A DNA stretch of 41,721 nucleotides, taken from the NCBI GenBank assembly GCA_030621805.1, contig JAUXGY010000001.1:1-41721 (forward strand), read 5' to 3'. A program made the position numbers and the translations under genes. The notes below the pieces were generated by a model. It was not told the DNA's origin, did no database searches, and was given only the letters and a program-made list of their open reading frames with translations. Positions 10,028-30,216 of this stretch are shown in pieces; position 1 is the stretch's first letter, and each line of letters begins with the position of its first letter. This DNA is from Kiritimatiellales bacterium. Lineage in GTDB: Bacteria > Verrucomicrobiota > Kiritimatiellia > Kiritimatiellales > Pontiellaceae.

Positions 10028-10320
10028 TTATATATGGAGCCATCCCAGTGTCGATATGGGGTTTAAATCCTTTTCATGGATGAGCTCGCGCATTTCGGAA
10101 TGCCCAATGATTTCATGGAGTGTTCCGTGGTCGGCGATGCGTCCGTTTTTCATCAATACAATCTGGTCGCTGAGCTGCAGGATTTTGGAGAGGTCGAGTA
10201 GGGGCTCGATTCCGGTAAATTCGATCACCTGTTGCTCGGTGTAGGGCGTTTTTCCAGTAGGGTTTCCTTTGCCGGTATGCAGGTGTTTAAGCACGAACCA
10301 GTGTGGGCTTCATCAAGCTT
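10028..10320 (-). pseudogene. Degraded ABC-ATPase C-terminal fragment, possibly ModC-like
   Basis: DLSKILQLSDQIVLMKNGRIADHG resembles the region after the H-loop of ABC ATPases; no Walker A or signature motif; an LDEA (Walker B-like) string lies upstream in another frame. Confidence 0.45.
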
Positions 10321-10610
10321 TTCTTTATTTACAACCCCCTTTGTAATGCCTTGTTTGTGATTACTTTGCGCCGCTCAGTGCGACTTGTATGGGGCTAAAA
10401 CAACGGGTTTTCTATTTAGATTTTATATAAATTAGGCAGAGCTAACTTTCGCGTATACGTAAAAACCCTTTAAAAAGTGATGGATATAGTCATGTATACT
10501 GAGTCGCTCAAAAAAACACAATTTACACAGATACTTGATCATCATACTCTCGTCTATAGGTGGGCAACAGGTTTCAGTAGTGGCCTTAGATGCATACGGG
10601 TGTTTTGATT

Positions 10611-12527: not shown

Positions 12528-12528
12528 C

Positions 12529-13005
12529 ATGGATTCAGAAGAAAAAAAAAGCGATTCGGGCGATCGCCGGGATTTTGTGGGTAAGTGCGCTGCAGGGGCT
12601 TTTGTGGGAGCGGTTGGTCTTGCGGCGGCCGGTTCGTTGTGCGGGCTAAAACCTTCCGTGCTGCCCGATCCGTCGGAGCAGTTTAAGATTGGTTCCGGGC
12701 AGGATTTTCCGGTCGGTTCGGTGAAGGTGTTTGAGAAGGAAAACGTCGCGGTTTTCAGCGAGCCGGACGGGCTATACGCCATCTCGCTGGTCTGCACGCA
12801 CCTCGGTTGCATCGTCAGTTTGAACGCCAAGGAGGGTCAGTTCGACTGTCCGTGCCACGGCTCCCGGTTTACCCTCAAAGGGAAGGTCACGAGGGCGCCA
12901 GCCCCGAAGCCGCTACCTTGGTTTAAGATCACGGCGCAGCCGAGCGGCGCGTTGATGGTTGATAAGGGTATTTCCGTTGAGAGCGGAACGAAGGTGGTGG
13001 TATGA
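12529..13005 (+). CDS. Rieske [2Fe-2S] subunit of a Rieske/cytochrome b complex
   Basis: Tat-type RRDF plus TM anchor; CTHLGC and CPCHGS boxes. Confidence 0.96.
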   Translation: MDSEEKKSDSGDRRDFVGKCAAGAFVGAVGLAAAGSLCGLKPSVLPDPSEQFKIGSGQDFPVGSVKVFEKENVAVFSEPDGLYAISLVCTHLGCIVSLNAKEGQFDCPCHGSRFTLKGKVTRAPAPKPLPWFKITAQPSGALMVDKGISVESGTKVVV

Positions 13006-14564: not shown

Positions 14565-14576
14565 GGAACTTGGACG

Positions 14577-17144
14577 ATGATAAAAAAACTCCTTTTAGTC
14601 TGTAGTATCGCAATCGTTGCATTGCTTGGAATCGAGGCGGTCAAACTGGTCGTTACGCCCGAGTATAAGACGCATCAAAAGAGATATAAAAAGATGCTGG
14701 TCGAAATGGCAGTCACCGCCGACGAAAAAGCGGCGGCGGATGCTTATGGCATCAAGCTCCGCCAGCTGGTGTGTCCTGATTTGGGCACAACGGATCGGTG
14801 TATTTCCTGCCATGCGGCCATTGAAGATTCACGCGTAACGAACGGCGTAAAGCCGCTGGTCTCGCATCCGCACGGTCTGCTCGTGGATCACGATATCCGA
14901 AAAATTGGCTGCACGGTCTGCCACGATGGACAGGGGCTGGCGACCAATAAAAAAGAGGCGCACGCCAACGAAATCCACTTTTGGGAAAAGATTCGGTTGC
15001 AGGGCGAACTCGTGCAGGCCAACTGCCTGCGCTGCCATCATATTGAAAGCCTACCGGAGCAAAAAACGATCCAGCTCGGCCATAAACTATTTGTTGAAAA
15101 CGGCTGTCGTGGATGCCACAAGATTGGCAACTCCGGTGGCTTCCTCGGCCCAGACCTTACGCTGATCGGCGATGCTTCGTTCCACTTGAAGGCCCCCGTG
15201 GGGCATAACCGACAGGAGGAGATCGGTAAGTTTAATCACAACGTCAATTTGGCTTATCTTTTTGAATCGGTAAAAAATCCGACGGCCAACGCCGAAGATT
15301 CCAAGATGATCGACAACCATTTCTCGGACGAGGAAGCTCTCGCGCTGGCCGTTTATCTCAAGAGCTTCCAAACCAAGAAGGTTCCCGACAGCCTTCAGGC
15401 GTTCGATAAGAATATTCCCGTGGCATCCGGTCGCGACATCTTCCTGGCGCACTGCTCCGCCTGCCATGGTTCCGAAGGGCAGGGGGCACCGTTGGATGAA
15501 ACCGATAAACTCGGGCCGTCACTCGCGAACGAAGCCTTCCAGTCCATCGCCACGCCGGAATTTGTTAAGGCCATGGTCATCGATCCCGGCAGCTCCATCA
15601 TGCCGGCCTGGGGCAAGTCCGGCGGACTCTCCGAAATAGAGATCGATAAGGTTGTGGCCTATGTCCTTTCGCTCAGGAAATATCCAGAGGAGAAGGATGG
15701 CGATGCGGAGTATGTTGGGAATCCAACCTACGGGAAAATCCGTTTTGAAAGCCGCTGCGCAGGATGCCACGGCATTGATGGAGACTATGAAATCGATCTC
15801 ATCGGCCCAACGCTAACGAGCCCCGAATTCAAGACCTACGCCACGCCGCACTTCCTCGAAACGACGATCCGAAACGGGCGCGCCGGAACGGCGATGCCAT
15901 CATGGTACTTCCTCGAAAATAAAGAGGTAAAAGACATCGTGGCCTTCCTTTCCGGTCGCCGAGAGCAGGCACCGCCGCTCGCGGAATGTTTGGAAGCCGC
16001 CGCGCAGCCCCAAGCAGCGGAACACGGCAAGAGCATGTTCCAAACCCGCTGCGCTTCCTGCCACGGTTTCGAGGCCGAAGGTCGCATCGGGCCGTCGCTC
16101 AACACGCCGGAACTGCAAGTCCTTGGGTCGAATGAATTTTTTCACCGCACCATTACTCACGGTCGCGAAGGCACGGCGATGGGGGGATGGGCGCATCTCT
16201 CGGCAACGGAAGTCGGATCGATCATGGCCTACCTGCGCACCTTCCCGAAAGGTACGATCCGTACGGCGGCACATAAAGCGGTCGCCAGCGAAAGCCAGGG
16301 CAAGGTTAACTTTGACCGAGTGTGCGCACAGTGTCATGGACCGGATGGTGTTGGGCATATTGGTCCCGCAATCGGCGGCAGGGATTTCCTCGCTTCGGTG
16401 GACGATCAATTCCTGCGCGAAATGATCAGCCATGGCCGCAGCGGAACGGGTATGCGTTCGAACCTTCAGGGCACCTCGGGCTTTGCCGGACTTTCGGCCT
16501 CGGAAATTGACGAGGTAATTTCTTATCTGCGCGTACTCGAAACCAAACCCTTCTCGACGATTGGAAGAACGGTTACGGCGGGCGATATTGAAGTTGGGCG
16601 CGATCTATTTGCCCGCACGTGTGCGCAGTGCCATGGCCCTGCGGGTAGTGGCGGTTCCGGCCCAGGCATTGGCCGACCGGGCTTCCTTGCAACCGTCAGC
16701 GATGGCTTTCTCGAAGGCACGATTGCCAACGGACGCACCGGCACGGAAATGCGCGGCTTCTCGCCGGGGCAGCATGCGCTGGCCGATCTGGCGGAACCGG
16801 AAGTCCGCGCCATCGTGGCTTACCTCCGTTCGGGCATCGACCACGACAAGCTGGTGCCGCGCGAAATTATCGGCACCCCGGAGCGCGGTGCAATGTTGTT
16901 TAAGCAGCAGTGTGTGTCGTGTCATGGCGATAAGGATGGCGAGAGCTTTGCACCGTGGTTGGCGAACCCGAAATATTTGGCGGCGGTGGGCAACCCCTAT
17001 CTACAGGCCACCATGTCGATGGGCCACGGCGCAAACATGCGTTCGATGATTCGCGGCGGTAGCGGGATTGTGGAAATGACGGGGCGGGATATCAACGACA
17101 TCATCGCCTACTTACGTAGTGATTTAAAAAATGACGATAAATAA
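14577..17144 (+). CDS. Membrane-anchored decaheme cytochrome c
   Basis: 10 CxxCH motifs (CISCH, CTVCH, CLRCH, CRGCH, CSACH, CAGCH, CASCH, CAQCH x2, CVSCH); N-terminal hydrophobic anchor. Confidence 0.95.
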   Translation: MIKKLLLVCSIAIVALLGIEAVKLVVTPEYKTHQKRYKKMLVEMAVTADEKAAADAYGIKLRQLVCPDLGTTDRCISCHAAIEDSRVTNGVKPLVSHPHGLLVDHDIRKIGCTVCHDGQGLATNKKEAHANEIHFWEKIRLQGELVQANCLRCHHIESLPEQKTIQLGHKLFVENGCRGCHKIGNSGGFLGPDLTLIGDASFHLKAPVGHNRQEEIGKFNHNVNLAYLFESVKNPTANAEDSKMIDNHFSDEEALALAVYLKSFQTKKVPDSLQAFDKNIPVASGRDIFLAHCSACHGSEGQGAPLDETDKLGPSLANEAFQSIATPEFVKAMVIDPGSSIMPAWGKSGGLSEIEIDKVVAYVLSLRKYPEEKDGDAEYVGNPTYGKIRFESRCAGCHGIDGDYEIDLIGPTLTSPEFKTYATPHFLETTIRNGRAGTAMPSWYFLENKEVKDIVAFLSGRREQAPPLAECLEAAAQPQAAEHGKSMFQTRCASCHGFEAEGRIGPSLNTPELQVLGSNEFFHRTITHGREGTAMGGWAHLSATEVGSIMAYLRTFPKGTIRTAAHKAVASESQGKVNFDRVCAQCHGPDGVGHIGPAIGGRDFLASVDDQFLREMISHGRSGTGMRSNLQGTSGFAGLSASEIDEVISYLRVLETKPFSTIGRTVTAGDIEVGRDLFARTCAQCHGPAGSGGSGPGIGRPGFLATVSDGFLEGTIANGRTGTEMRGFSPGQHALADLAEPEVRAIVAYLRSGIDHDKLVPREIIGTPERGAMLFKQQCVSCHGDKDGESFAPWLANPKYLAAVGNPYLQATMSMGHGANMRSMIRGGSGIVEMTGRDINDIIAYLRSDLKNDDK

Positions 17145-17156
17145 GGAGACGGGAAA

Positions 17157-19877
17157 ATGAGACGCAAGGGAATAGACTTATCGAGAAGAAATTTTACGGG
17201 CGGTTCGGTATCTGGTGCTGCAGCATTGGGGCTGGGCGGTCAGATCTTCGCCCCCACTGACATCCTGGCGGAAGCGCAAGGCGGCGGGAAGATTAAGACC
17301 TGTTTGGCGCAATGCCCGTATTGCGGTGTCGGCTGCGGTTCCGTGATTAAGTATGAGGCCGACTCCGGCCGCATTCTCGGTTGTGTGCCCGATAAACAGC
17401 ATCCGACCAATAAGGGAGTGCAGTGCATCAAGGGCTTGAATGCCGACGAACCGGTCTACATTGACCGCCTCACGAAAGTGCTCGTTCGCAAGGATATGAG
17501 CGACCCGATGACGGGTCACGTCTCCAAGACCAAGGGAAGCTTTAATCCGGACGATTTCTATGAAACGACCTACGAGGAAGCGGAGCATATCGTCGCGGAA
17601 AAGCTGGGCCAGATTTATAAGAAAGACGGCGGCAATTCCATCGGCCTCTATGGCTCCGGACAGCTGACGGTTGAAGCCCAGTGGATTGAAAACAAGTTTA
17701 TGAAGGGCGTGCTTGGCTCCAACTCCATCGAAGCCAATGCGCGCATGTGTATGACCTCGGCGGTGACGGCCTATTTTGCGACGCTTGGCTCCGACACTCC
17801 GCCGCTGTGCTACGACGATATTGAGCTTTCCGACATGATTACCTTCTGGGGCCACAACCCGCGCGGTGCGCATACCATCGTCTTTTGGCGCGCGGCTGAC
17901 CACAAGGCGAAGAAGGGCATCCCGACCGTGATTTCCGACCCGCGTCGCACCGGTAGTGTTCAGGCATTGGAGTCGATCAACCCCGAAAACTCGCACCATA
18001 TCCAAACCATCAACGGCGATATTTCGGTGCTCAACGCCATCGCGCACTGCATCCTGACAGAGCACGAGGACATTGTTGAATATGACTTCCTCAAAGAAAA
18101 CACCGTCAACTCGGAAGACTATATCAAGATGTGCCGCGAGGAATATTCCCCCGAGCAAGTCACGGAACTGACGGGTGTGGAGCCGCAACTCATCCGCGAT
18201 ATCGCCGACGACTGGGCAAACGCTACCCGCAAGGGAAAGCGTCGCGGCAAGGGCGGGGTGATCTCCTTCTGGGGCATCGGCTACAACCAGCACATCCACG
18301 GACAGCATAATGTGATTTCGGTAATCAACCTGCACGCGCTGACCGGCAATCTGGGCCGTCCGGGCGCAGGGCCTTTCTCGATGACCGGCCAGCCGAATGC
18401 GATGGGCGAACGCCTGATGGGCGGACTGACCGGCCGCCTGCCGTTCAACCAGGGCATCAAAGGATCGAAGGGGCTGAACCTCAAAGGAATCGAAACGATT
18501 TCCAAGGCGTGGAACTGCTCGCCCGACAAGTTGGTGCAATCGGCCAACGCGAAGAATCCCGGCATGATGGTGGGCTTGTTCGAACGGGCCATCATGGATG
18601 AGGAGACGCTGAAGCGTAACGAACTCGATCCCGTGAAGGCGATGGTCTATTGCTACACCACCCACGTCCATCAGCCCGACCTCAATAACTTGGTACGCCC
18701 GGCACTCAGCAAAATGTTTGTGGTGGTGCAGGATATCTATCGGCATGCACCGAACCTGCTTTACGGCGATGTCATTTTTCCGGCGCTGACGTGGGGCGAG
18801 TGGCAGGGCGGAACCTATATTTCCTCCGAGCGCCGCTTTAATGTCGTGGATGGTGTTGGCAAGGGGATTGACGGAATGGAGCAGTGTCTGCCGGATATGG
18901 ACCTAGCCATCGATAAGGCCAAGTCGGTCGCCCATGCAATTGGAATGTCCGATGCGGAAATTCAGAAAATGTGGCCGTACAAGAAAAAGAAATTCCACCC
19001 GAATGGGCCGGAGCTGTACGACGCGGAAGAGGTGTTTGAGGAGATCGTGAAAGCGTCGAAAGGCTCCGACTGCGATATGACCGGCATGCTGGAAGTACGC
19101 GAGCGCGACGGCATCGGTTTATACGATCAGCTGCGGCAGTTGCGCGGTATACAGTGGCCGGCACCGACCTATGCTCATGCGAAAGCTGGAGGAACACCGC
19201 GCCGGTTCATGGGGCAGGAGCAGTGGGGCAATAAACCCTACGGCAACTTCCGCCGTCCCGATGGCAAGATGGCCTTCAAGCCGTGTCGTCAGGACTACAA
19301 TGGGAAAGAGGAGGTCCATGCCGCGCTCAGCAAGATCGGTACCGATCCGACGGTCTTTGCCTCCGACAACAAGGAACTGCTGGTTAAGGCGCGCGACATG
19401 GGGCTGACGCCGGAATGGCCGGACAAGGAGCACCTAGGCAAGAAATGGGATGAAGTACCGAAAGACAAATATCCCTTCTGGTTGGGGCTCGGAATCGTGT
19501 ATGAGCATTTTCACACGGCCAAGACCATTCGCGGCGCAACCACGCGGCGGCTGGTGCCGGAGCAATATCTTGAAATGCACGAGCTCGATGCCAAAGAACT
19601 CGGCGTTGAAGATGGCGACATGGTGAAGATCACGACTCGGCGCGGGAGCTACCAAGGCCGCGTCTCGGTCGGTGGCATCCGCTCCAAGGTGAAACCGGCG
19701 CGTAATGAAGTTCCGCGCGGCTATGTATTCAGTCCGTGGAACCTTTCCGTGGCCGACTCGGCTGATCCAAAGCACAACAAGTGGCTCGTGAATGCGACCA
19801 GCCATCGGGCCTACGATCCGGTTTCGGGTCAGGTCGATTTCAAGAAGCTGGCAGCTCGGATTGAGCGGTTGTCGTAA
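17157..19877 (+). CDS. Divergent Tat-exported Mo/W-bisPGD oxidoreductase of the Nap/Nas family, substrate uncertain
   Basis: SRRNF Tat motif; CPYCGVGC...CIKG [4Fe-4S]; NARMCMTSA Cys ligand; TGQPNAMG; C-terminal molybdopterin dinucleotide-binding domain; AGGAG RBS. Confidence 0.9.
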   Translation: MRRKGIDLSRRNFTGGSVSGAAALGLGGQIFAPTDILAEAQGGGKIKTCLAQCPYCGVGCGSVIKYEADSGRILGCVPDKQHPTNKGVQCIKGLNADEPVYIDRLTKVLVRKDMSDPMTGHVSKTKGSFNPDDFYETTYEEAEHIVAEKLGQIYKKDGGNSIGLYGSGQLTVEAQWIENKFMKGVLGSNSIEANARMCMTSAVTAYFATLGSDTPPLCYDDIELSDMITFWGHNPRGAHTIVFWRAADHKAKKGIPTVISDPRRTGSVQALESINPENSHHIQTINGDISVLNAIAHCILTEHEDIVEYDFLKENTVNSEDYIKMCREEYSPEQVTELTGVEPQLIRDIADDWANATRKGKRRGKGGVISFWGIGYNQHIHGQHNVISVINLHALTGNLGRPGAGPFSMTGQPNAMGERLMGGLTGRLPFNQGIKGSKGLNLKGIETISKAWNCSPDKLVQSANAKNPGMMVGLFERAIMDEETLKRNELDPVKAMVYCYTTHVHQPDLNNLVRPALSKMFVVVQDIYRHAPNLLYGDVIFPALTWGEWQGGTYISSERRFNVVDGVGKGIDGMEQCLPDMDLAIDKAKSVAHAIGMSDAEIQKMWPYKKKKFHPNGPELYDAEEVFEEIVKASKGSDCDMTGMLEVRERDGIGLYDQLRQLRGIQWPAPTYAHAKAGGTPRRFMGQEQWGNKPYGNFRRPDGKMAFKPCRQDYNGKEEVHAALSKIGTDPTVFASDNKELLVKARDMGLTPEWPDKEHLGKKWDEVPKDKYPFWLGLGIVYEHFHTAKTIRGATTRRLVPEQYLEMHELDAKELGVEDGDMVKITTRRGSYQGRVSVGGIRSKVKPARNEVPRGYVFSPWNLSVADSADPKHNKWLVNATSHRAYDPVSGQVDFKKLAARIERLS

Positions 19878-19888
19878 CGGTAAAAATA

Positions 19889-20491
19889 ATGGGTAAAAAA
19901 AGCAGACGTTTATTTTTCGAGGCCGGGGCAGTTGCCGGAGCATCCGCCTTGGTGGGGGGTGTGCTGGCAGGCAACAAGTCCGATGCCATTGCCCGCTCGG
20001 GGAAGCTCCAGACGGCGGTGGTGCGCCCGCCGGGTGCACTGCCGGAGGAGGAGTTTATTGCCAGCTGCATCGGTTGCAAGCAGTGCGCGGAAGTGTGCTC
20101 GAACGGCTGTATTCAGTTTAGCCGTTGGGATCACGCGCCGGGAACTCCGTATCTCAAAACGCGCGAGCAACCCTGCATCCTTTGCATGAAATGTACGCAG
20201 GTTTGCCCGACGGGTGCGCTCAAGTCCGTGCCGTCGGATTCGGTGGCGGACATTCAGGCCAACGTGAAAATGGGTATTGCTAAGGTGGATGAAAACATCT
20301 GCAACTCATACAATGGCTATGTCTGCGGAGCCTGTGTCTTTGCCTGTCCGTTTTCGGGAACGGCTTTGAAGGCACTGGTCTGGGAGCAACCGATTGTCGA
20401 TCCCGACTACTGCGTCGGGTGCGGCCTATGCGAGAAGGCCTGCATCGTCTATCCCCAAGCCATTCGCGTCGTCCCCATCTCTGTGATATGA
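19889..20491 (+). CDS. napG: NapG/MauM-type periplasmic polyferredoxin
   Basis: SRRLFF Tat motif, VRPPGALPEEEF..CIGCKQCAEVC and further Cys clusters. Confidence 0.88.
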   Translation: MGKKSRRLFFEAGAVAGASALVGGVLAGNKSDAIARSGKLQTAVVRPPGALPEEEFIASCIGCKQCAEVCSNGCIQFSRWDHAPGTPYLKTREQPCILCMKCTQVCPTGALKSVPSDSVADIQANVKMGIAKVDENICNSYNGYVCGACVFACPFSGTALKALVWEQPIVDPDYCVGCGLCEKACIVYPQAIRVVPISVI

Positions 20492-21393
20492 AGCCAAAAA
20501 TTTCCATCCTCCGAATCGTGCTCCGCCTGTTGATTCTCGCGCTATTTTTTGTCATTGCGGGAATCAATCACTATTCCACTGTGAAGGCACAGCAGGGAGG
20601 GCAAGAGGTGATTAAGGACTCGGCGATGTTAAGCGCAATCGACAAGCTCTACGGTTCATCCCCACACCGTCCAATCTACGAACATGTGGCAGGCGGCGGG
20701 CTGTGGTCGTTCCAGATCAAGGGGTTTCGGGTGAGCGATCCGCTGGCGGTCGTGAGTGATATTGCCGCATCAAAGACGCTACATAAGCTGATGCTGATTT
20801 CGCTCATCATTCCACTGGTTGGAACGCTATTGCTGGGGCGCGTGTTTTGCAGTTGGATCTGTCCGATGGGTCTATTCGGTGATCTGCTGTTATGGGTTCG
20901 CAGACTGATTGGAAAGGTCGGGTTTAGTTTCTTTAATTTGCCCGTCAGCCGCCGGATTAAGTATTGGGTGCTAGGTTTCGGAACCCTCGTTTCTTTGGTG
21001 GTCTCGATCCAGTTTTTCTACCTTTTCTATCCGCCACGCATGATTTCCGACTGGGCACGCGATGGATGGACCAGCACGATTTCCGGCGTTGACCTTGTGG
21101 TTTTCGGAACCATTCTTTTCTTTGAACTCCTCCTGTGTCAGCGGCTCTGGTGCAAATGCCTCTGCCCCGGCGGCGCGCTCTATTCCCTGCTCAGCAAGTG
21201 GCGGATATTGCGCATCAATCGCGATGTCCATGCCTGCACGGCATGCGGCAAGTGCGACGACGCCTGTCCCTACGACCTTGAACCCGGCTCGCTTCCGCTC
21301 GGCGGCGAATGCGACAACTGCGGATTATGTGTGCAAGCCTGTGGTGACGATGCGATACATTATCGCCTTCAAACTGGCGGAGAAAAATCATGA
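20488..21393 (+). CDS. napH: NapH/MauN-type membrane quinol dehydrogenase component
   Basis: SDPLA, GRVFCSWICPMG, WCKCLCPGGALY and two C-terminal ferredoxin motifs; ATGA overlap with napG. Confidence 0.88.
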   Translation: MKPKISILRIVLRLLILALFFVIAGINHYSTVKAQQGGQEVIKDSAMLSAIDKLYGSSPHRPIYEHVAGGGLWSFQIKGFRVSDPLAVVSDIAASKTLHKLMLISLIIPLVGTLLLGRVFCSWICPMGLFGDLLLWVRRLIGKVGFSFFNLPVSRRIKYWVLGFGTLVSLVVSIQFFYLFYPPRMISDWARDGWTSTISGVDLVVFGTILFFELLLCQRLWCKCLCPGGALYSLLSKWRILRINRDVHACTACGKCDDACPYDLEPGSLPLGGECDNCGLCVQACGDDAIHYRLQTGGEKS

Positions 21394-22052
21394 TCGGGAA
21401 AAGGGTTGGCAGAAAAATTGAAGGGCAGAAAAATTGCCATGGCCTCGGTGTTTTTAATCATTCTGCCACAAAATCATTCTGCCTGAATTCTCGACAGCGA
21501 AGCCGCATTGGAAATTATTTTATTTTATTCATTCTGTTAAATTTTCTATTGTTGGTTTTCTCGGCCTCGGCCCACCACATCCGCGGTATCCCACACTACA
21601 GCTATCAGGAAAACTATCCGCAGGCTCCTGCGTTCGAAGAATTTCGTGAATCCGGACCGTGGGAACTCCAGTTTACCTATTGGCAGATTCCTTCACAGCC
21701 CGCGCTCGATCTCGCCCTTTATGTAAAACGGCGCGATACAGGGAAACCCTATTCCGACGCGGTAACGATCCAGGTTTTCCAGCAGGGCGAGGACGAAGCC
21801 AACGATCTCAATCATCCCGTCAACGCCTACGCCAATCCGCGGAATATCTATAAGGTGGGGTGGGTCTATGAAGAGGCGGGAATGTATGTCGTGAAGGTTG
21901 ATTTGGGCGAAGGCGATGAGCAGATTTCCGAACGCTTTACCCTTCAGGTCGGCACCGTTCCTCCCAACTACTGGTTCCTCGGAGGTGCGGTGGTTGCCGT
22001 CGTTGGCCTAATGGCTGCCGTGGCCATCATTAAAAAACGAAGTGAGGGCTAA
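21390..22052 (+). CDS. Hypothetical exported protein with C-terminal membrane anchor
   Basis: Hydrophobic signal ending ASA, then HHIRGIPHY; C-terminal TM followed by KKR; ATGA overlap with napH and GGAG RBS. Confidence 0.8.
   Translation: MIGKRVGRKIEGQKNCHGLGVFNHSATKSFCLNSRQRSRIGNYFILFILLNFLLLVFSASAHHIRGIPHYSYQENYPQAPAFEEFRESGPWELQFTYWQIPSQPALDLALYVKRRDTGKPYSDAVTIQVFQQGEDEANDLNHPVNAYANPRNIYKVGWVYEEAGMYVVKVDLGEGDEQISERFTLQVGTVPPNYWFLGGAVVAVVGLMAAVAIIKKRSEG
21408..21483. repeat. MITE-like palindrome inside the 5' end of the 21390 ORF
   Basis: GGCAGAAAAATT at 21408 and 21424; AATCATTCTGCC at 21456 and 21472. Confidence 0.85.
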
Positions 22053-22074
22053 ACGGTGTGCAGCAGAAGGAATC

Positions 22075-22152
22075 GGCAGAATGATTGGGTGGCAGACTTA
22101 TTTAAAACCCCTATAGTCCTGAAAAATTATTCTGTCACCCAATTATTCTGCC
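22075..22152. repeat. MITE-like palindrome, complete copy
   Basis: GGCAGAATGATT-GGGT-GGCAGACTTATT ... AATTATTCTGTC-ACCC-AATTATTCTGCC. Confidence 0.85.
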
Positions 22153-22194
22153 TACCATTTCACGGGTGACGGAACGCATAGTGGAAGAAACGAA

Positions 22195-23982
22195 ATGAAA
22201 TACTATCTGGCCATTCTGTTGTTGCTCGCGGTTCCTGTGGTTGGAACGGCGCAGGAAACCGCCGATGTAATATGCACGCAATGCGGTATGGTCAACTGCA
22301 CCATGCCATGCTGTGCCGACGCAAACCGCGCAGTCGATACGCCGGTTAATGGGGTGATCTGCGAGATCTGCGGCATGGTCAACTGCAAGATGGGCTGCAA
22401 GGCCGAGACGGTCGACTGGAAGGGCGATACGCTGATGGTGATGCCGGGACTGCCGAACTGGCTTTTCTATGCCTCCGTCATCGCCGTTCTCGTTTTCTCG
22501 TTCGTCATAGTCGAGGTGCTCGGCCGCCGCTCCAAACAGCAACCGCTCTGGCGCTATAACTTGTTCCACCTCCGTCCCATGAAGGCGCTGTTCAAGAGCC
22601 GCTTTTTCCCCGGACTCTTCCAAATGATTGTGACGATCTTCTTCCTATTTCTCGTCTATGCCGGACTCTACGGCCACCAAGTCATTAACATTACCCCGGC
22701 ACTGGTCTGGACCATCTGGTGGGCGGGGCTCATCTTTATCATCCTATTTTTCGGTAAGGCGTGGTGCACCATCTGCCCATGGGATTTCATGGCCACCGCG
22801 CTTTCCTCTCTCCGGCTGTGGGGCGTCGGAGATCGCCCACTGACGCTCGGCCTTAAATGGCCGCGATGGATGCGCAACATTTATCCCGCCATCGGACTCT
22901 TCATTATCCTCACCTGGCTGGAGCTGGGATATCACGTAACCACCTCGCCAAAAATGACCGCCTACATGGCCATCGGCATGCTCCTGCTTGCCATCATTCC
23001 CGCCTTCATTTTTGACCGCAAAGGCTTCTGCCGCTACGGTTGTTTTGTCGGCCGCATCTCCGGTCTCTATGCCAACTTTTCGCCCATCGAAGTCCGCTCC
23101 GCCGACAAGTCGGTCTGCGCCGGATGTAAAACCAAGGACTGCTATCGCGGCAACGAAAACGGCAACCCATGCCCAACCTTCCTCAACCTCGCCATGCTCG
23201 AAGACAACACCTACTGCATCATGTGTGGCGACTGTGTGAAATCCTGCCCGCACGACAACGTCGCGCTCAACGTCCGCCCCTTCGCGAGCGACCTGTTTAG
23301 TTATAATCAGCCACGCAAGGACGAGGCCTACCTCGCGCTCATCCTCCTATCGCTCACCAGCTTCCACGGGTTGACCATGACGCCCATCTGGGAAAACCCC
23401 GAGCAACCCGCCGGCACCATCATCGGCTGGATCAGCTCGCTTCTTGGAACCGGCCACCTTGGGTCGTTCACCATCGGCATGAGTGCCATTCTTGCCATTC
23501 CGATTATTGTCTACTGGCTCTTTTGCCTTACCGCACGCAGCATTGCGCAGCAATGGGGGAACGAAGTTCAACGCAGCATTCCGCTCTCGAAAATCTTCAT
23601 CGCCTTCGCCTATTCCGTCCTGCCCATCGCGCTCTGCTACCACGTTGCGCACAACGGCATGCACCTCTTCATGGAAGGGCAGAATGTACTCACGCTGATC
23701 TCCGATCCGATGGGCCGTGGTTGGGATCTATTCGGAACCGCCACCAAAACCTACCCGCCCATCCTCGGCGCCATGACCGTCTGGATTCTGCAAGTCATCT
23801 TGGTCGTGATTGGCCACATCTACGGCATCATCATTTCCCAGCGCACCGCCGAAAAGTTATTTGGAAAAGACCGCGTCGCCACCTGGGTTCAGCTACCGTT
23901 GCTACTCGCCATGATCCTCTTCTCCTTCATCTCCCTCTGGATCATGCACCTCGACATGAACATGCGCGGCACGCTCATGTAG
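22195..23982 (+). CDS. Polytopic membrane 4Fe-4S protein (NapH/CcoG/NosR-like core) with Cys-rich exported N-terminus
   Basis: GKAWCTICPW, FCRYGCFVG, CAGCKTKDC..CP and CIMCGDCVKSCP motifs; many TM segments; SDPMGRGWDLFGTA. Confidence 0.88.
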   Translation: MKYYLAILLLLAVPVVGTAQETADVICTQCGMVNCTMPCCADANRAVDTPVNGVICEICGMVNCKMGCKAETVDWKGDTLMVMPGLPNWLFYASVIAVLVFSFVIVEVLGRRSKQQPLWRYNLFHLRPMKALFKSRFFPGLFQMIVTIFFLFLVYAGLYGHQVINITPALVWTIWWAGLIFIILFFGKAWCTICPWDFMATALSSLRLWGVGDRPLTLGLKWPRWMRNIYPAIGLFIILTWLELGYHVTTSPKMTAYMAIGMLLLAIIPAFIFDRKGFCRYGCFVGRISGLYANFSPIEVRSADKSVCAGCKTKDCYRGNENGNPCPTFLNLAMLEDNTYCIMCGDCVKSCPHDNVALNVRPFASDLFSYNQPRKDEAYLALILLSLTSFHGLTMTPIWENPEQPAGTIIGWISSLLGTGHLGSFTIGMSAILAIPIIVYWLFCLTARSIAQQWGNEVQRSIPLSKIFIAFAYSVLPIALCYHVAHNGMHLFMEGQNVLTLISDPMGRGWDLFGTATKTYPPILGAMTVWILQVILVVIGHIYGIIISQRTAEKLFGKDRVATWVQLPLLLAMILFSFISLWIMHLDMNMRGTLM

Positions 23983-24149: not shown

Positions 24150-24392
24150 ATGCCTGTTTGTAGTTATGTAGTGAATTCCGTGGAAGGAAAGTTTGATGAA
24201 CTGATGGAGGAACTTTCTGAAAAACCGGGGTGCGAGGCCTATCCGTCCGATGGGCGCGAGGTGATCGTGCTGGTCACCGATACCCCCACGAAGGAAGCGG
24301 ATAAGAAGCTTTATAAGGAATTAAAGGATCATGACAAAATCAGCTGCATCGCGATTAGCTTTGCGGACATACCAGAAGGGGAGGATGACTAA
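24150..24392 (+). CDS. napD: NapD chaperone
   Basis: 80 aa; MPVCSYVV...IVLVTD pattern; stop overlaps the napA start (TAATG). Confidence 0.8.
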   Translation: MPVCSYVVNSVEGKFDELMEELSEKPGCEAYPSDGREVIVLVTDTPTKEADKKLYKELKDHDKISCIAISFADIPEGEDD

Positions 24393-26707
24393 TGGATCGT
24401 CGTAAATTTATGAAAAATGCCGCACTGGCTTCAGCATGTTCAGCTGCGGCCGCCATGGTGCCGGGTGTAACGTTCGGGAGTGTTCAAGAGGTTGGGGTCA
24501 GCGGAAGCGGGCTCGAATGGCACAAGGCGCCGTGCCGTTTTTGCGGCGTGGGCTGCGGGGTTCTCGTTGGGGTTTCCGGCGGAAAGGCCGTGGCGGTGAA
24601 GGGCGATCCGTCCTCATCCGTAAGCCGTGGCCTCGGCTGCGTGAAGGGGCTGCACTCGGTGCAGATGCTCTATGCGAAAGATCGCTACAAACAAGCCTAC
24701 GTCAAGCGCGACGGCAAGATGGTTCCGGTTCCGATTTCCGAGGCGCTTGATATTGTTGCTGAAAAAATGCAGGCGACAATTGATAAGCACGGCAAAGATT
24801 CCGTTGCCCTCTACGGTTCCGGCCAGTGGACGATCCCCGACGGCTATGTGGCCAGCAAGTTTATGAAGGGTTGTATTGGTTCGAATAACCTCGAAGCTAA
24901 CGCCCGCCTCTGCATGGCCAGCGCCGTAACCGGTTTCCTCACCACGTTTGGTGCGGACGAGCCGATGGGCTGCTACGACGATATTGAACAGACCGAAACC
25001 TTCGTGCTGTGGGGCAACAATATGGCCGAGATGCACCCCGTGCTTTTCTCGCGCTGTCTGGAGCAACGCCGCCGAAATCCCGGTCGCGTCAAGATTATTG
25101 ATTTGGCCACCCGCACCACTCGCACCAGTCGCGCGGCGGACGATTCCTTCATCTTCCGCCCGCAGACTGACCTCGCGATTGCCAACGCGATCTGCCACGA
25201 GATTGTCAAGAACGACCAGGTCAACTGGGGCTTCTTCAACAAGCACGTCAATATCATGGAAGGAAAGACCGATATTGGCTACGGGCTGGAGGATAACTTT
25301 AAGTTTAAGGACGAAACCGCCAAGATCGATATGGAGGCCTACAAAGCCTTCCTGTCCGACTACACGCCGGAAAAGGTGGAGAAAATCAGCGGCGTTTCCG
25401 CCAACGATATCCGCAAACTCGCCGCCCTATACGGCGACCCAAACCGCAAGGTGGTCTCCTACTGGTGCATGGGCATGAACCAGCACTCGCGCGGCACCTG
25501 GATCAACAATCTCGTCTACAATATCCACCTGCTTGTGGGTAAGATCTCGCTGCCGGGCAACGGCCCGTTCTCGCTGACCGGTCAGCCGAGTGCTTGCGGC
25601 ACCGTCCGCGAGGTGGGAACGCTGACGCATAAGCTGCCGCACGGTGTGGTCATGAATCCTAAGCATCGCGCCTTTGCTGCCAAAATTTGGGGTGTTCCTG
25701 TTGAGCGCATTCCAGCCAAACCGACCCATCACACGATGGCCATGTTCCGGGCGTTGGATCGCGGCGACATCCGTTTTATCTGGACGCAAGTCACCAACCC
25801 GATGCAGACCATGCCCAAGCTTAAACGCTATTTTGAGGGCAGCATGAAAGAGGATCGTTTCATCGTGGTATCCGATGCTTTCCCGACGCCGACCACCGCC
25901 GTCGCCGATGTGATTCTTCCGGCCGCCTGCTGGATTGAGCGCGAGGGATTGTATGGAAATTCCGAACGCCGCACCCAGCAATTCGATCAGATTGTACAAC
26001 CGCCCGGAGAAGCCATGTGCGACACTTGGCAGATCATCGAGGTGGCCCGCCGCATGGGCTTCACCAAGGAATTTCCGTATCCACAGGAAACCTACATCCG
26101 CGACGTCTATGAAGAGTATCGCCTGCACCACGTCGGCATGAAACACGCGATGGCGCCGTATGACGAGCTCCGTAAATATCCCGGACTCCAGTGGCCTTTC
26201 GTAAACGGCAAAGAGACCAAGTGGCGCTATAACGAAAAGTATGACCCCGCCGTGAAGAAGGGCAGTGGTTTTGAGTTCTACGGAAAGAAGGACGGCAAAG
26301 CCGTCATCCTCGCTCGTCCATACGAACCCGCCGCCGAAGAACCCGATGCCGAATATCCATTCTGGCTCTGCACCGGACGCGTGGTCGAGCACTGGCACAC
26401 CGGCTCTATGACCCGCCGCATCCCCGTGCTGAACAAGGCGATGCCGGAAGGGTATGTCGAGATCAACACCGAGGATGCCCGCCGCATGGGGATTGTCGAT
26501 GGCCGCGAAGTTCGCCTCACCTCTCGTCGTGGAACGATCGTTCTGAAGGCCAAGGTGAATGGCCGCGGAAACCCGCCCTCCCTGTCGGTATTTGTTCCGT
26601 TCTTCGACGAAAACAAATTGATCAACGAGCTGACGCTGGATGCGTACTGTCCGATCTCCAAGCAGCCGGACTATAAGAAATGTGCCGTAAAGGTTGAACG
26701 GGTATGA
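24392..26707 (+). CDS. napA: Periplasmic nitrate reductase catalytic subunit
   Basis: DRRKFMK Tat motif, KAPCRFCGVGC, NARLCMASA, WGNNMAEMHPVL, WCMGMNQH, SLTGQPSACGTVREVG, TGRVVEHWHTGSMT and PDYKKCAVK. Confidence 0.97.
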   Translation: MDRRKFMKNAALASACSAAAAMVPGVTFGSVQEVGVSGSGLEWHKAPCRFCGVGCGVLVGVSGGKAVAVKGDPSSSVSRGLGCVKGLHSVQMLYAKDRYKQAYVKRDGKMVPVPISEALDIVAEKMQATIDKHGKDSVALYGSGQWTIPDGYVASKFMKGCIGSNNLEANARLCMASAVTGFLTTFGADEPMGCYDDIEQTETFVLWGNNMAEMHPVLFSRCLEQRRRNPGRVKIIDLATRTTRTSRAADDSFIFRPQTDLAIANAICHEIVKNDQVNWGFFNKHVNIMEGKTDIGYGLEDNFKFKDETAKIDMEAYKAFLSDYTPEKVEKISGVSANDIRKLAALYGDPNRKVVSYWCMGMNQHSRGTWINNLVYNIHLLVGKISLPGNGPFSLTGQPSACGTVREVGTLTHKLPHGVVMNPKHRAFAAKIWGVPVERIPAKPTHHTMAMFRALDRGDIRFIWTQVTNPMQTMPKLKRYFEGSMKEDRFIVVSDAFPTPTTAVADVILPAACWIEREGLYGNSERRTQQFDQIVQPPGEAMCDTWQIIEVARRMGFTKEFPYPQETYIRDVYEEYRLHHVGMKHAMAPYDELRKYPGLQWPFVNGKETKWRYNEKYDPAVKKGSGFEFYGKKDGKAVILARPYEPAAEEPDAEYPFWLCTGRVVEHWHTGSMTRRIPVLNKAMPEGYVEINTEDARRMGIVDGREVRLTSRRGTIVLKAKVNGRGNPPSLSVFVPFFDENKLINELTLDAYCPISKQPDYKKCAVKVERV

Positions 26708-27432
26708 GCGCGAAACAAGCATCCCCGTTGACCGGGGTAATCATTCTTGCGGGCTTCATTGCCATCGGCATGACGGTGTTGTTCACCGTCCGCGGCAAGT
26801 TGCAGGCACAGGATCAAGAGGCACACGCGGGGCACCATCCGTCGTGGGCCACCGCGCACGCCGCTTCCCATGCTGTGGTGGAAATCGTCGTTCCGCCGCG
26901 CACGGCGCAACCGGCTTTCGAGTCGGTTCCCCGCCCCGGTGCAAAGGTGCGCACGTTGCGCGAATTCTACAGTCGCCGCGCCTATGCCGGCGCTCCGCCG
27001 ATCATTCCGCATGCGGTGGAGGACGATGGCGTGATTAACGACGACTGCCTCTCCTGCCACCAAGATGGAGGCTATGTGCCGGAGTATAACGCCTACACGC
27101 CGGTCACTCCGCATCCGGAAATGGGGAACTGTCGCCAGTGTCATGTGGAGCAAATTGTTGAGGGGTTATTTGTGGCCACCGAGTGGATTCAACCCGCCCT
27201 TCCGAAGCGCGGGCAGCAGTCGATCCCCGGCGGACCATTGCAGATTCCCCATCCGTTGCAATTCCGCGAAAACTGTTTGGCGTGTCACGCCGGTCCGCAG
27301 GCCGTGGTGGAAATCCGTAGCTCGCATCCCGAACGCGAAAACTGTTTGCAGTGCCATGTGGTGGATCAAAATGTTCCGCCGTTTAAATCGCTAATCGACA
27401 CCCGTATGGAACTCGCCGATGTTGAAAAATAG
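26704..27432 (+). CDS. Tetraheme cytochrome c with duplicated NapB-like modules
   Basis: RRAYAGAPPIIPH..CLSCH..CRQCH and GPLQIPH..CLACH..CLQCH; N-terminal TM segment. Confidence 0.88.
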   Translation: MSAKQASPLTGVIILAGFIAIGMTVLFTVRGKLQAQDQEAHAGHHPSWATAHAASHAVVEIVVPPRTAQPAFESVPRPGAKVRTLREFYSRRAYAGAPPIIPHAVEDDGVINDDCLSCHQDGGYVPEYNAYTPVTPHPEMGNCRQCHVEQIVEGLFVATEWIQPALPKRGQQSIPGGPLQIPHPLQFRENCLACHAGPQAVVEIRSSHPERENCLQCHVVDQNVPPFKSLIDTRMELADVEK

Positions 27433-28009
27433 TTTGATCGCAGGAATGGCGGTTTGCGTTTTTGCCGGTTGCAGCAAGGAGCCGGAGCATATCTATTCCG
27501 AACCACTGGAGCAGGGCGACTATGATCGTCAGGAGCGGATTGCCGAGCACCGTGCACAACCCGTCGAAGTGTCGGGCTATGCCCACATCTATGTGGCCGG
27601 TCCTGAAACCGAACGTAAGGATTGCGCCCGGTGCCATAAGCCGGGGGAAGAACCCTATCGCGACGAGTCGCTTCCGCCCGGGCAGGATGCTCACTGGGAT
27701 ATTGCGATTCACCATGCGGGCGATATGGAATGCTTCTCCTGCCATAAGAAGGAGGATCCAGCCCGGTTGGTGTCGGTGCTCGATAAGGAGGCACGTTTAG
27801 AGACGGCCTATTTGCATTGCGGCAGTTGCCACAAGGATCAGTTTCAATCCTGGCTGGGCGGAGCTCATGGAAAACGCGTTACCGGATGGCTCGGGGTGCG
27901 CATTATTAAAAACTGCACCGATTGCCATGACCCGCATGTTCCGGCTCGTGAAACCACGCTTCCGGTTGCACAACCCACTATTACGCCTGAACGGGCGATG
28001 AGGCACTAG
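27419..28009 (+). CDS. Tetraheme cytochrome c, probable lipoprotein
   Basis: Lipobox FAGC; CARCH, CFSCH, CGSCH and CTDCH. Confidence 0.88.
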   Translation: MLKNSLIAGMAVCVFAGCSKEPEHIYSEPLEQGDYDRQERIAEHRAQPVEVSGYAHIYVAGPETERKDCARCHKPGEEPYRDESLPPGQDAHWDIAIHHAGDMECFSCHKKEDPARLVSVLDKEARLETAYLHCGSCHKDQFQSWLGGAHGKRVTGWLGVRIIKNCTDCHDPHVPARETTLPVAQPTITPERAMRH

Positions 28010-28010
28010 C

Positions 28011-28976
28011 ATGAAAGAAGGTTCTAAAACGTGTTCGGAAAAGTGTTTCGCCGATATGGCATTGAAGAAAAAAGGCTCGCGGCGCGGTGCTTTGACCGCA
28101 CTGCTCGGCGGCGCGGCCACGGCGGCGGCTTCGAGCGCAAGTGCCGCAATGGCTACCGACGAGGAGAAGGAACTCAAGCGCATTAAGCGCAATGAATTTT
28201 TTCAAAAATACTACCGCGTCATGACTGAAGAGGAGCGCGCGACCACCGTGGCCCGCTTCGAGCGAAAGGCCAAGTTGGAGCAGGGGATTGAGGTCAAGAT
28301 CGACGACACCTCCGCTCGACCCGATGTGATGTTCGGCTATGCCTTCAATATTTCAAAGTGCGAAGGCTCGCGCAAGTGTGTCGATGCCTGTGTGAAGGAG
28401 AACAATCAGGATCGCGCGAGTAACATTCAATATATCAAGTTGTTTGAAATGGAAGGCGGCGTCGGAAGCGTACACGGGGGCGATTCAGAATATTCCCACG
28501 AAGTTCCGGTGGATGGAAAATACTACCTCGGGACCCAATGCTTCCAATGCGAGAATCCCCCCTGCACGAAATCGTGCCCCACCGGCGCAACGTGGAAAGA
28601 GGCCGACGGCATTGTGGTGGTCGACTATAACTGGTGCATCGGCTGCCGCTATTGCGAGGCCGCTTGTCCGTACTTTGCGCGTCGCTTCAACTGGAAGGAA
28701 CCCGAGGTTCCAAAGGAAGAAATCAACCCGAAGCAGCACTACCTCACCAACCGCATGCGCATGAAAGGGGTGATGGAAAAATGCACCTACTGCGCGCAAC
28801 GCTCGCGGCATGGCAAGCTGCCTGCCTGTGCCGAGGCCTGCCCGACCGGTGCGCGCGTTTTCGGCAACCTGCTCGACCCCGATAGCGAGATTCGCTGGAT
28901 CCTCGCCAACAAGAAAGTGTTCCGCCTCAAAGAGGATTTAGGGACGGAGCCGACGTTCTGGTACTACGCGGATTGA
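28011..28976 (+). CDS. NrfC/PsrB-type four-cluster FeS protein
   Basis: CEGSRKCVDAC, CFQCENPPCTKSCP, CIGCRYCEAACP and KCTYC..PACAEACP; degenerate Tat motif SRRGAL. Confidence 0.93.
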   Translation: MKEGSKTCSEKCFADMALKKKGSRRGALTALLGGAATAAASSASAAMATDEEKELKRIKRNEFFQKYYRVMTEEERATTVARFERKAKLEQGIEVKIDDTSARPDVMFGYAFNISKCEGSRKCVDACVKENNQDRASNIQYIKLFEMEGGVGSVHGGDSEYSHEVPVDGKYYLGTQCFQCENPPCTKSCPTGATWKEADGIVVVDYNWCIGCRYCEAACPYFARRFNWKEPEVPKEEINPKQHYLTNRMRMKGVMEKCTYCAQRSRHGKLPACAEACPTGARVFGNLLDPDSEIRWILANKKVFRLKEDLGTEPTFWYYAD

Positions 28977-28980
28977 TTCT

Positions 28981-30216
28981 ATGAAAACATTCTTAAATTT
29001 TATCATGAGCGGGTTGGCGGTGGTGTTTACCGGATCGGTAAAATACTATCTTTGGCTAGGGCTCCTTCTTTCACTAATGCTTGCGGGTGCCTATGGCTAC
29101 TCGATCCAACTTAAGGAAGGACTCGGAGCCACCGGGATGCACGACCATGTGAGCTGGGGGATCTACATCAGCAACTTTATCTTCTTCGTCGGCGTGGCTG
29201 CCGGGGGCGTGATGCTGGTGATTCCGGCCTACGTCATGAAAGACCGCGATTTTTCCAAGGTGGTGCTCATTGGGGAGGGCCTTGCCGTGGCCGCCTTGAT
29301 CATGGCGCTCATGTTTGTCTTGGCCGACCTCGGCGGCGTGACGCGGTTCTGGCACATGCTCCCCGTGATCGGATTTTTCCATTTCCCGCAGTCGATGCTG
29401 ACCTGGGACGTGCTGGTGCTCAATGGCTATCTGGCGCTGAACCTGGCCATCCCCGCCTACATCCTCTACTGCCGCTACCAAGGTAAGGAGCCGATCAAAA
29501 AGATCTACGTTCCTTTCGTAATTCTCTCCGTTTTCTGGGCGTTCGGCATCCACCTTGTCACCGCCTTCCTGCTCGTGGGCGCCCCCGATAAAACCTTCTG
29601 GAGCTCGGCCATCCTCGGCCCGCGTTTTCTAGCCTCGGCCTTCACCGCCGGTCCGGCATTGATCATCATTATCTTCAGCATTATCCGTCAGACCTCGGAC
29701 TATAAGATTTCTGATGAAACCATCGACAAGCTCTCCACGGTGGTCATGTTCGCGGCGTATGCCAACCTCGTCATGCTTCTCTCCGAAATCTTCAAAGAGT
29801 TTTATTGGAGCTCCGAACATACCGCCCACGCACGCTATCTTTTCTTCGGGTTGGATGGCCACAACGCCGTCACCCCCTTCATATGGGGATCGGTCGTGAG
29901 CAATGTACTGGCCACGGTGCTGATTTCATTCCGTTCGCTGCGCGAAAACCATGCCGTCCTCGTTCCCGCCTGCTTCGTGCTCTTTATTGCGATTTGGATC
30001 GAGAAGGGGTTGGGACTTGTTATCCCCGGCTTTATTCCCTCATCGCTTGGCGAGATCGTCGAATACCTCCCCACGCTCGTGGAGATTCTCGTCACACTCG
30101 GCATTATCGGGTTTGGCCTGTTCACCCTCACCGCCCTGCTCAAGGTCTTCATCCGGATAGAAACCGGCGCGATGGACCGCAATAAAGGCTGGTGGGTTTC
30201 TCCCTCGGCAAAGTAG
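28981..30216 (+). CDS. NrfD/PsrC-family quinol-interacting membrane subunit
   Basis: VSWGIYISNFIFFVGVAAG, ADLG..RFW and YLPTLVE motifs; about 10 TM segments. Confidence 0.93.
   Translation: MKTFLNFIMSGLAVVFTGSVKYYLWLGLLLSLMLAGAYGYSIQLKEGLGATGMHDHVSWGIYISNFIFFVGVAAGGVMLVIPAYVMKDRDFSKVVLIGEGLAVAALIMALMFVLADLGGVTRFWHMLPVIGFFHFPQSMLTWDVLVLNGYLALNLAIPAYILYCRYQGKEPIKKIYVPFVILSVFWAFGIHLVTAFLLVGAPDKTFWSSAILGPRFLASAFTAGPALIIIIFSIIRQTSDYKISDETIDKLSTVVMFAAYANLVMLLSEIFKEFYWSSEHTAHARYLFFGLDGHNAVTPFIWGSVVSNVLATVLISFRSLRENHAVLVPACFVLFIAIWIEKGLGLVIPGFIPSSLGEIVEYLPTLVEILVTLGIIGFGLFTLTALLKVFIRIETGAMDRNKGWWVSPSAK

Follow-up and report, generated by a model that had tools for sequence, protein, structure and literature searches.

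Gene organisation at the MoX locus

The window analysed here is a 41 721-nt stretch from the genome of a Kiritimatiellales bacterium (GCA_030621805.1, contig JAUXGY010000001.1, positions 1 to 41 721), and the subject of this study is one of its genes, termed here MoX, which encodes a predicted exported molybdenum or tungsten enzyme (Table 1). The MoX open reading frame (ORF) is preceded by an AGGAG ribosome-binding site, starts 12 nt past the decahaem cytochrome gene and encodes 906 amino acids with Pfam domains PF04879, PF00384 and PF01568; the protein belongs to the dimethyl sulphoxide reductase (MopB) superfamily and has the features of its formate dehydrogenase (Fdh), periplasmic nitrate reductase (Nap) and assimilatory nitrate reductase (Nas) branch. 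A first-pass annotation of the same DNA had compared MoX with a canonical 771-residue NapA of the window (ORF 24392-26707), to which it is 28% identical (BLAST). The six motifs quoted from that NapA and the eight quoted from MoX were all found in place, the latter being SRRNF, a twin-arginine translocation (Tat) signal (residue 9), NARMCM (194), NPRGAHT (234), WGIGYNQH (372), GQPNAMGERLMG (411), YTTH (500), WGEWQG (546) and LGIVYEHFHT (778). The 771-residue protein clears the two NCBIfam NapA cut-offs (997 vs 904; 961 vs 931) and MoX falls under both (306 vs 904; 290 vs 931). The NCBIfam Fdh-alpha model, at 286 bits, and the Nas models also remain far under cut-off.

Table 1. Genes of the MoX operon and the adjoining nap module, in order of position.
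Feature	Position	Strand	Basis
NAD(P)-binding Fe-S flavoprotein, GltD/NfnB-like, C-terminal 4Fe-4S dicluster, 645 aa	10590..12527	+	Pfam Pyr_redox_2, Fer4_20, Fer4
Rieske [2Fe-2S] protein, Tat-like RRDF	12529..13005	+	Pfam; PDB matches 9rk4, 9rk3
Cytochrome b6-like domain fused to subunit IV-like domain, 520 aa	13002..14564	+	Pfam Cytochrome_B; NCBIfam ExtP/ExtQ partial matches
Membrane-anchored decahaem cytochrome c	14577..17144	+	10 CxxCH; Pfam Cytochrome_CBB3/Cytochrom_C
MoX, Tat-exported, Cys-ligated Mo/W-bis-pyranopterin guanine dinucleotide (bisPGD) enzyme, N-terminal [4Fe-4S]	17157..19877	+	Pfam, NCBIfam, model, alignment, tree
NapG-like Tat polyferredoxin, 200 aa	19889..20491	+	NCBIfam NapG 129 bits, below cut-off
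NapH-like membrane Fe-S protein	20488..21393	+	NCBIfam NapH 124 bits, below cut-off; start inferred from 4-nt overlap
His-His exported protein, no known family, C-terminal membrane anchor	21390..22052	+	Homologue alignment
Polytopic membrane Fe-S protein, CxxxCP motifs, distantly NapH/CcoG-like, 595 aa	22195..23982	+	Weak NapH matches
nap module: napD, napA (771 aa), two tetrahaem cytochromes, NrfC/DsrO-like, NrfD/DsrP-like	24150..30216	+	Pfam, NCBIfam

MoX lies within nine co-directional genes (10590-23982) separated by gaps of -4 to 12 nt, with 142 nt ahead of the last gene; a scan for promoters and terminators upstream of the operon returned no more than chance. The flavoprotein matched NfnA/NfnI alpha and GltD in the PDB, and no signal peptide was seen in it. 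The best PDB matches of the Rieske protein are Kuste4569 (9rk4) and Kustd1480 (9rk3) of Kuenenia, and it has the Ser and Phe pattern of Kustd1480 (CPCHGSRF), while the fused cytochrome b has APWY at the PEWY position. The decahaem cytochrome comprises three closely spaced haems and seven class I domains, with a candidate Met ligand after each, and its residues 450-650 are the best match to the dihaem partners in 33 of 41 other loci. The His-His protein matches no Pfam or NCBIfam family and falls into unnamed clusters of the ESM Atlas (18% of one of them carries the label YtkA). The predicted mature N-terminus of the protein reads HHxxGxPHY, with H62, H63, G66 and P68 invariant in 50 homologues, and presumably resembles N-terminal metal-binding hooks. 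A predicted complex of MoX with this protein scored 0.00, with controls also unfolded, and carries no weight either way. Genes for SCO1/SenC and thioredoxin-like DUF255 proteins adjoin some MoX operons (L034, L057, L063, L069), hinting at copper handling.

Conservation of the operon was followed in 82 loci (87 minus 5 near-duplicates), made up of the best 80 of 540 metagenome stretches together with genome loci, each gene being scored where the flanking sequence reached far enough. A class I cytochrome c with 2, 4, 6 or 10 haems stands directly upstream of MoX in 67/71 loci, and NapG and NapH lie downstream in 56/57 and 47/48, respectively. The His-His protein was present in at least 39 of 42 loci, the membrane Fe-S protein in 31/42 and the flavoprotein and cytochrome b module in 15/27, and a NapC-type cytochrome was located upstream in 7/53. 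Six queries gave no match to NapB or NapD in 87 loci, NapD being short and divergent. The constant core consists of cytochrome c, MoX, NapG and NapH, and the quinol-side module is variable. In two loci (L043, L045) no cytochrome precedes the operon, and ActA/ActB-like genes for an alternative complex III come after it. Elsewhere (G395:C27 159901-172000, L134; G304:C2, L145) a second Rieske/cytochrome b module and an octahaem cytochrome occur in tandem with or near the MoX operon, the module of G395 including a second NAD flavoprotein. A divergent Rrf2-family regulator is found upstream of some operons (L139:4010-4411, L143:3217-3612, L002:1185-1595). In the window this side holds a short divergent ORF remnant (10028-10294, minus strand), ABC ATPase tail-like by eye and without a Pfam match.

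Phylogenetic position and distribution of the MoX clade

Two homologue searches, from each of which the best 120 were taken, gave a clade of at least 240 clusters, whose members are 55-99% identical to each other (sample of 1500 pairs) and share about 30% identity with NapA or Nas, with 284 MoX positions conserved at 98% or more. When sequences were clustered at 50%, one full-length clade representative scored 1244 bits and two deep relatives 965 and 642, with ordinary Nap and Nas at about 400 or less. Two trees were built with annotated Escherichia coli and C. sphaeroides NapA, Nas, FdhF/FdsA and AioA as references: a quick tree of 59 rows, for which 18 of 77 were left out (three degenerate long-branch sequences without the Mo-ligating Cys, two aberrant ones and the rest near-redundant), and a careful tree of 34 of the 77 rows. 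Both trees recovered the MoX clade as a single, long-stemmed group; in the careful tree it had a support of 100/100 and a stem of 0.74, and Nap (100/99) and Nas (100/99) were each monophyletic without it. It was separated from Fdh at 100/100, sat inside the Nap/Nas radiation and, in the best tree, fell weakly beside NapA (88/93). Nesting with crown NapA was rejected (p-AU 0.0035) and joining the clade to Nas was not (p-AU 0.444); identity to an AioA was 24%. Since Nap and Nas are each closed groups without MoX, these trees place the clade as a third lineage within the radiation, beside NapA and Nas. Neither the trees nor the alignment showed MoX nesting in a characterised NapA or NasA clade that shares its substitutions. 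The description of MoX as Nas-like holds for its GQPNAMG-x-R spacing and Thr214 and does not carry over to the best tree, although Nas as sister was not rejected.

Members of the clade come from Kiritimatiellia, Lentisphaerae, Omnitrophica, Myxococcota, Hydrogenedentota and Alpha- and Gammaproteobacteria, with Thiohalobacter sp. IOR34 and Ruegeria sp. HKCCD8929 as named isolates among the carriers. When metagenomes were scanned, 540 of 597 stretches proved to be MoX clade, from which about 1500 are estimated in the whole collection. The clade is unevenly distributed, with carriers in 11 of 401 genomes from the class of the window and in 2 of 251 from another phylum, and none of 72 556 plasmid records held a member, the best match being 29%. 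Existing labels of clade members are 'anaerobic selenocysteine-containing dehydrogenase', 'hypothetical' or, sometimes, NapA (JGI), and the ESM Atlas returned for MoX only general Nap/Nas/Aio clusters. We found no paper describing the clade in a literature search whose coverage left most subscription journals outside. In the available part of a superfamily survey, Nas and Nap are merged among sequences from metagenome-assembled genomes and this branch is unnamed (PMC10100899). The NapA phylogeny published in the Journal of Biological Chemistry in 2025 is described, in the portion available, as covering cultured homologues of D. desulfuricans NapA-like length and at least 30% identity, and because of these limits it probably excludes the MoX clade. 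A Nap of Sporomusa (PMC12780646), with a 2262-bp napA and a napD, is by this description unlike the MoX operon.

Several other lineages were noted alongside the clade. Two deep relatives (P0122, P0123) already have Arg236 and have already lost the pterin Arg considered below, and they still keep Met308; these two and P0129, P0133, P0144 and P0151 represent further Tat-bearing Nap/Nas-like lineages. Three MopB-fold proteins of about 940 residues (P0148, P0164, P0195) keep the [4Fe-4S] cysteines and are without the Mo-ligand Cys and pterin motifs, and possibly form a cofactor-less lineage.

Active site and structural model

The residues of 240 clade sequences were compared with those of 14 Nap, 24 Nas and 4 Fdh sequences. 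The cluster cysteines (C53, C56, C60, C90) and the Mo ligand Cys198 are present in MoX and in the clade, and the first-pass observation that the [4Fe-4S] Cys set, the adjacent Lys and the Cys-Met ligand are kept extends to near-invariance: in 238-240 of 240 sequences the four cysteines occur together with Lys92, Gln169, Arg196, Cys198-Met199, Asp213, Asn234, His239, Asn377-Gln378, Gln412, Arg419, Glu548, Arg559, His784, His786 and Lys896, and Arg427 is present in all 240. The residue following the Cys ligand is Met199 in 240/240 clade sequences and His in 4/4 Fdh, which argues against a formate dehydrogenase, and all 240 have TGQPNA where Fdh has RGQNN (RGQxNV).

Arg419 and Asp213 of MoX align with Arg354 and Asp155 of D. 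desulfuricans NapA (DdNapA), which are named funnel residues of that enzyme (PMC13223375). Of the DdNapA funnel set Arg354, Asp155, Glu156 and Asp355, two are thus kept and two lost in the MoX clade. Arg196, Asp213, Arg419 and Arg427 correspond to four of six channel residues of Campylobacter jejuni NapA (CjNapA), whose numbering was inferred from ranges (PMC12769810). The pterin patch of NapA, Thr-Gly-Arg-Val-x-x-His-Trp-His, in which the Arg is a conserved pterin contact (PMC13223375), reads Leu-Gly-Val/Ile-Val-Tyr-Glu-His-Phe-His in MoX; both His are kept and the patch is not matched. We infer that Arg236 may compensate for the lost pterin Arg. An AlphaFold model of MoX from a 150-row alignment (pLDDT 96.6, pTM 0.95) was closest to DdNapA (2NAP; Z 47.6, root mean square deviation 1.8 A over 694 residues), followed by Fdh (43.7) and AioA (39.5). 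An earlier model from 25 close sequences (pLDDT 66) was poor at the cofactor loops and was discarded.

Among known enzymes, the monomeric DdNapA (2NAP/2JIO) is like MoX in fold, in Cys140-Met141, Asp155, Gln346, Arg354 and the cluster Lys, in GQPNA, NxxxAH and Tat export, and in that no NapB was found with it. It differs in having only about 30% identity and lacking about 150 residues that MoX carries in insertions, and the partner of MoX is a class I cytochrome, not NapM, with no NapD found in the operon. With NasA, NasC and NarB, MoX has in common the GQPNAMG-x-R spacing, GQL-x-x-E, a non-acidic position 156, WGE and the H-T-x-K-T ending. In contrast to these, it has a Tat signal (208 of 234 full-length clade members carry one), no C-terminal Fe-S or diaphorase domains and respiratory partners, and in the mapped loci it does not lie beside assimilatory nitrite reductase genes. 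AioA and IdrA, with a [3Fe-4S] cluster, no protein Mo ligand and a soluble Rieske subunit, differ from MoX in its Cys198, its four cluster cysteines and a Rieske protein paired with cytochrome b. MoX would work like a Nap, yet it belongs to neither NapA nor Nas.

These comparisons also bear on the changes that the first-pass annotation had reported. Being fixed in 238-240/240 clade sequences, they are not assembly noise or drift, with G237, P235 and T501 as flagged positions that vary within the clade. Some were overstated because only one NapA had been used for comparison: the D. desulfuricans enzyme (2JIM/2NAP) reads GQPNACGGVRD and GSNTSEAHP, so that GQPNA and NxxxAH are ordinary for the NapA family, and WGE is common in Nas. 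The wider proposal of a distinct, exported clade with altered funnel and pterin contacts agrees with the tree position, the Tat signal and the fixed substitutions.

Electron supply and substrate of MoX

The donor side of the operon has parallels in known systems. In Campylobacterota Nap (napAGHBFLD with QcrABC), as is predicted here, NapG/NapH and a bc complex feed a periplasmic Mo enzyme; feeding of Nap by bc has been demonstrated for C. jejuni (PMC6195509), and in Caldithrix, where Rieske/cytochrome b genes lie within the nap cluster, a bc-fed Nap has been suggested (PMC5317091). MoX differs from the campylobacterial system in being of another catalytic clade and in sharing its operon with the bc genes, which are fused to a decahaem cytochrome and accompanied by an NAD(P) flavoprotein. 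The anammox-type gene set of Kuenenia stuttgartiensis (Kuste4569-4574, Kustd1480-1485), in which NAD(P) oxidoreductase, Rieske, b6/subunit IV and multihaem c genes are clustered, is complete in the window. The window's gene set departs from the Kuenenia complexes in that its presumed high-potential sink is a molybdoenzyme instead of an HAO-like octahaem, that b6 and subunit IV form one protein and that the cytochrome b sequence, read by eye, showed no haem cN Cys; the host, judged from its relatives, is not an anammox bacterium. The Rieske potential of Kustd1480 is +335 mV, and quinol bifurcation to NAD(P)+ is a proposal even in Kuenenia (PMC12954380). It is likely that MoX is fed by the unusual anammox-like electron-transfer complex of its own operon.

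Clues to the substrate came from about 100 hand-picked neighbouring proteins, which are not a count, and from 14 MoX genomes set beside 22 relatives without MoX, which are kin and hence not independent; genome handles and L001-L006 may be the same records, and the two sets of counts were not summed. In G395 an ammonium transporter, a NapC-type tetrahaem and an HAO-like octahaem follow co-directionally right after napH, and they are close by in L003. Other nitrogen-related neighbours were NarK (L001), a NarQ/X-like sensor (L069) and Hcp (L003), and molybdopterin synthesis genes flank some loci. Four of the 14 MoX genomes encode NapA, four a NarG/NXR-like enzyme and seven (88-94% complete) neither, and six of these seven carry NrfA or an HAO-like octahaem, as do 11 of the 14 overall. 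Co-occurrence of NrfA was dropped as evidence for nitrate, being uninformative because 16 of the 22 relatives without MoX have it as well. Searches for molybdate and tungstate binding proteins in 5 genomes did not discriminate Mo from W. Tat-bearing type II NXR/NarG-like molybdoenzymes of 1160-1190 residues occur in 4/14 MoX genomes, in two of them within about 20 kb of MoX (L110, L111, L119/L144, G395:C27:178014-179810). The window's own genome (G000; contigs C460, C36, C24, C151, C235, C257, C270, C459) holds NrfA, an NrfH-like tetrahaem and, beyond these, several multihaem cytochromes of 6-12 CxxCH each.

MoX is probably a new type of periplasmic nitrate reductase, which draws electrons from quinol and reduces nitrate to nitrite; nitrate is a better bet than another substrate because the core residues are conserved and nitrogen-oxide genes are among the neighbours. 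With the clade, fold, retained core residues and conserved operon established, we infer the substrate and all electron-transfer steps as follows. Folded MoX would be exported by Tat. The site of quinol oxidation would be NapH/NapG, NapC where the locus is proteobacterial or, in the window, the Rieske/cytochrome b complex. Class I haem domains of a high-potential type could stand in for NapB as donor to MoX, passing electrons by way of the [4Fe-4S] cluster, Lys92 and the pterin to Mo. Nitrate would enter through a funnel of Arg196, Asp213, Arg419 and Arg427 and lose an oxygen atom. In the window's operon the other, low-potential electron from each quinol would pass via cytochrome b into a Q-cycle or, on the model put forward for anammox complexes, via the attached flavoprotein to NAD(P)H. 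The fixed substitutions may retune affinity, potential or pterin contacts and leave the reaction unchanged.

A number of observations weigh against nitrate reduction. Relative to DdNapA, Met308 has become Ile374 clade-wide (Met in 14/14 Nap, Met or Gln in 24/24 Nas), Asp355 has become Leu/Phe420 (Leu in MoX) and Glu156 a Nas-like non-acidic Thr214 (each in 240/240), and Asn-Pro is replaced clade-wide by Thr502-His503. In the domain IV pterin patch Thr-Gly-Arg has become Leu-Gly-Val/Ile (Ile in MoX), the Arg being lost in 240/240 and present in 14/14 Nap, 24/24 Nas and 4/4 Fdh, and Trp is replaced by Phe785. Arg236, Glu418 and Tyr782 are new to the clade and His503 is also gained. Such strong conservation after the long stem fits a changed function. 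Seven of the 14 MoX genomes also hold NapA or a NarG/NXR-like enzyme, the window's NapA adjoins MoX, NrfA is frequent in relatives without MoX, and most MoX loci have no nitrogen gene nearby. Furthermore, two accessory genes without an assigned function travel with MoX and have no counterpart in nap operons.

These same features can be read as those of a terminal reductase with the same wiring for another high-potential oxyanion or oxide, such as iodate, chlorate, bromate, selenate or an N- or S-oxide, which we regard as possible but doubtful. That funnel and pterin contacts are remodelled throughout the clade, that NapA or NarG/NXR-like enzymes co-occur with MoX and that it has dedicated accessory genes would all suit it, and G488 has a phosphonate/selenate-type binding protein and a SulP transporter flanking its operon. 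CjNapA also reduces chlorate and perchlorate, with channel residues tuning the preference (PMC12769810). However, the Cys-Met, Gln and funnel arginines of MoX are nitrate-reductase-like, the AioA/IdrA type is without a Cys ligand (PMC10100899), and no peroxidase, arsenic or selenate-reductase genes were among the hand-picked neighbours. The chlorite dismutase family is rare (2/14 MoX genomes, by partial matches, and 0/22 relatives), which disfavours chlorate or perchlorate respiration. A bolder and somewhat more doubtful proposal is that MoX could be the catalytic subunit of an undescribed respiration, in which the rebuilt funnel and pterin pocket admit a high-potential, non-nitrate acceptor such as iodate or another oxyanion, whose reduction drives quinol bifurcation in the attached Rieske/cytochrome b complex to NAD(P)H uphill, and the His-His protein supplies a second metal.

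The oxidative direction raised by the first-pass annotation was not borne out. A dehydrogenase, for example of nitrite to nitrate, with cytochrome c as acceptor and electrons running backwards across the Rieske/cytochrome b complex to NAD(P)+, might account for the high-potential-type class I haems, the Rieske Ser of the +300 mV anammox proteins and the attached NAD(P) flavoprotein. Potentials might be shifted where the pterin Arg is missing, and oxidised CjNapA oxidises nitrite weakly (PMC13223375). It is nevertheless unlikely, as MoX is tied to NapG/NapH (56/57 and 47/48 loci) and, in 7/53, to a NapC-type cytochrome, no more than 15/27 loci have the flavoprotein/cytochrome b module, and many carriers are, by name, presumed heterotrophs. 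NapG/NapH and NapC-type cytochromes are quinol-oxidising modules. That MoX is an ordinary NapA or Nas paralogue after drift is very unlikely and largely refuted: several flagged motifs do occur in DdNapA or Nas, JGI calls some members NapA and grouping the clade with Nas was not rejected, but Nap and Nas are closed without it, nesting in crown NapA was rejected, model scores lie far under the NapA and Nas cut-offs, the 87 loci gave no NapB or NapD match with the six queries, and the substitutions are fixed rather than scattered. Least probable of all is that MoX acts in the periplasm on formate, as a dehydrogenase, or on CO2, as a reductase, perhaps with tungsten. The common fold (Z 43.7 to W-Fdh) and an Fdh-alpha score near those of the NapA models are countered by Met199 in place of the catalytic His, by TGQPN in place of RGQNN and by the split from Fdh in the tree; no FdhD/FdhE-like neighbour was noticed, in the course of work that included no search aimed at either.

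If MoX does reduce nitrate, it would represent a third class of dissimilatory nitrate reductase across many phyla, and with the clade missed or mislabelled the nitrate-respiring capacity of low-oxygen communities would be undercounted. With another substrate, the respiration itself would be new. In both cases MoX offers a natural experiment on the pterin Arg, Met308 and Asp355, residues thought essential in Nap/Fdh enzymes, and its operon pairs an anammox-type NAD(P)-linked bc complex with an assayable terminal enzyme, which makes the bifurcation proposal testable outside anammox bacteria.

The canonical nap module starts 167 nt past the MoX operon, and the window's napD belongs to its napA. 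It is not beside MoX in L001-L006 and is a local neighbour outside the conserved MoX operon. Its 771-residue NapA is wired to two tetrahaem cytochromes and NrfC/NrfD-like proteins in place of NapB/NapC, and the same gene order is found on plasmid p1 of Flammeovirga kamogawensis.

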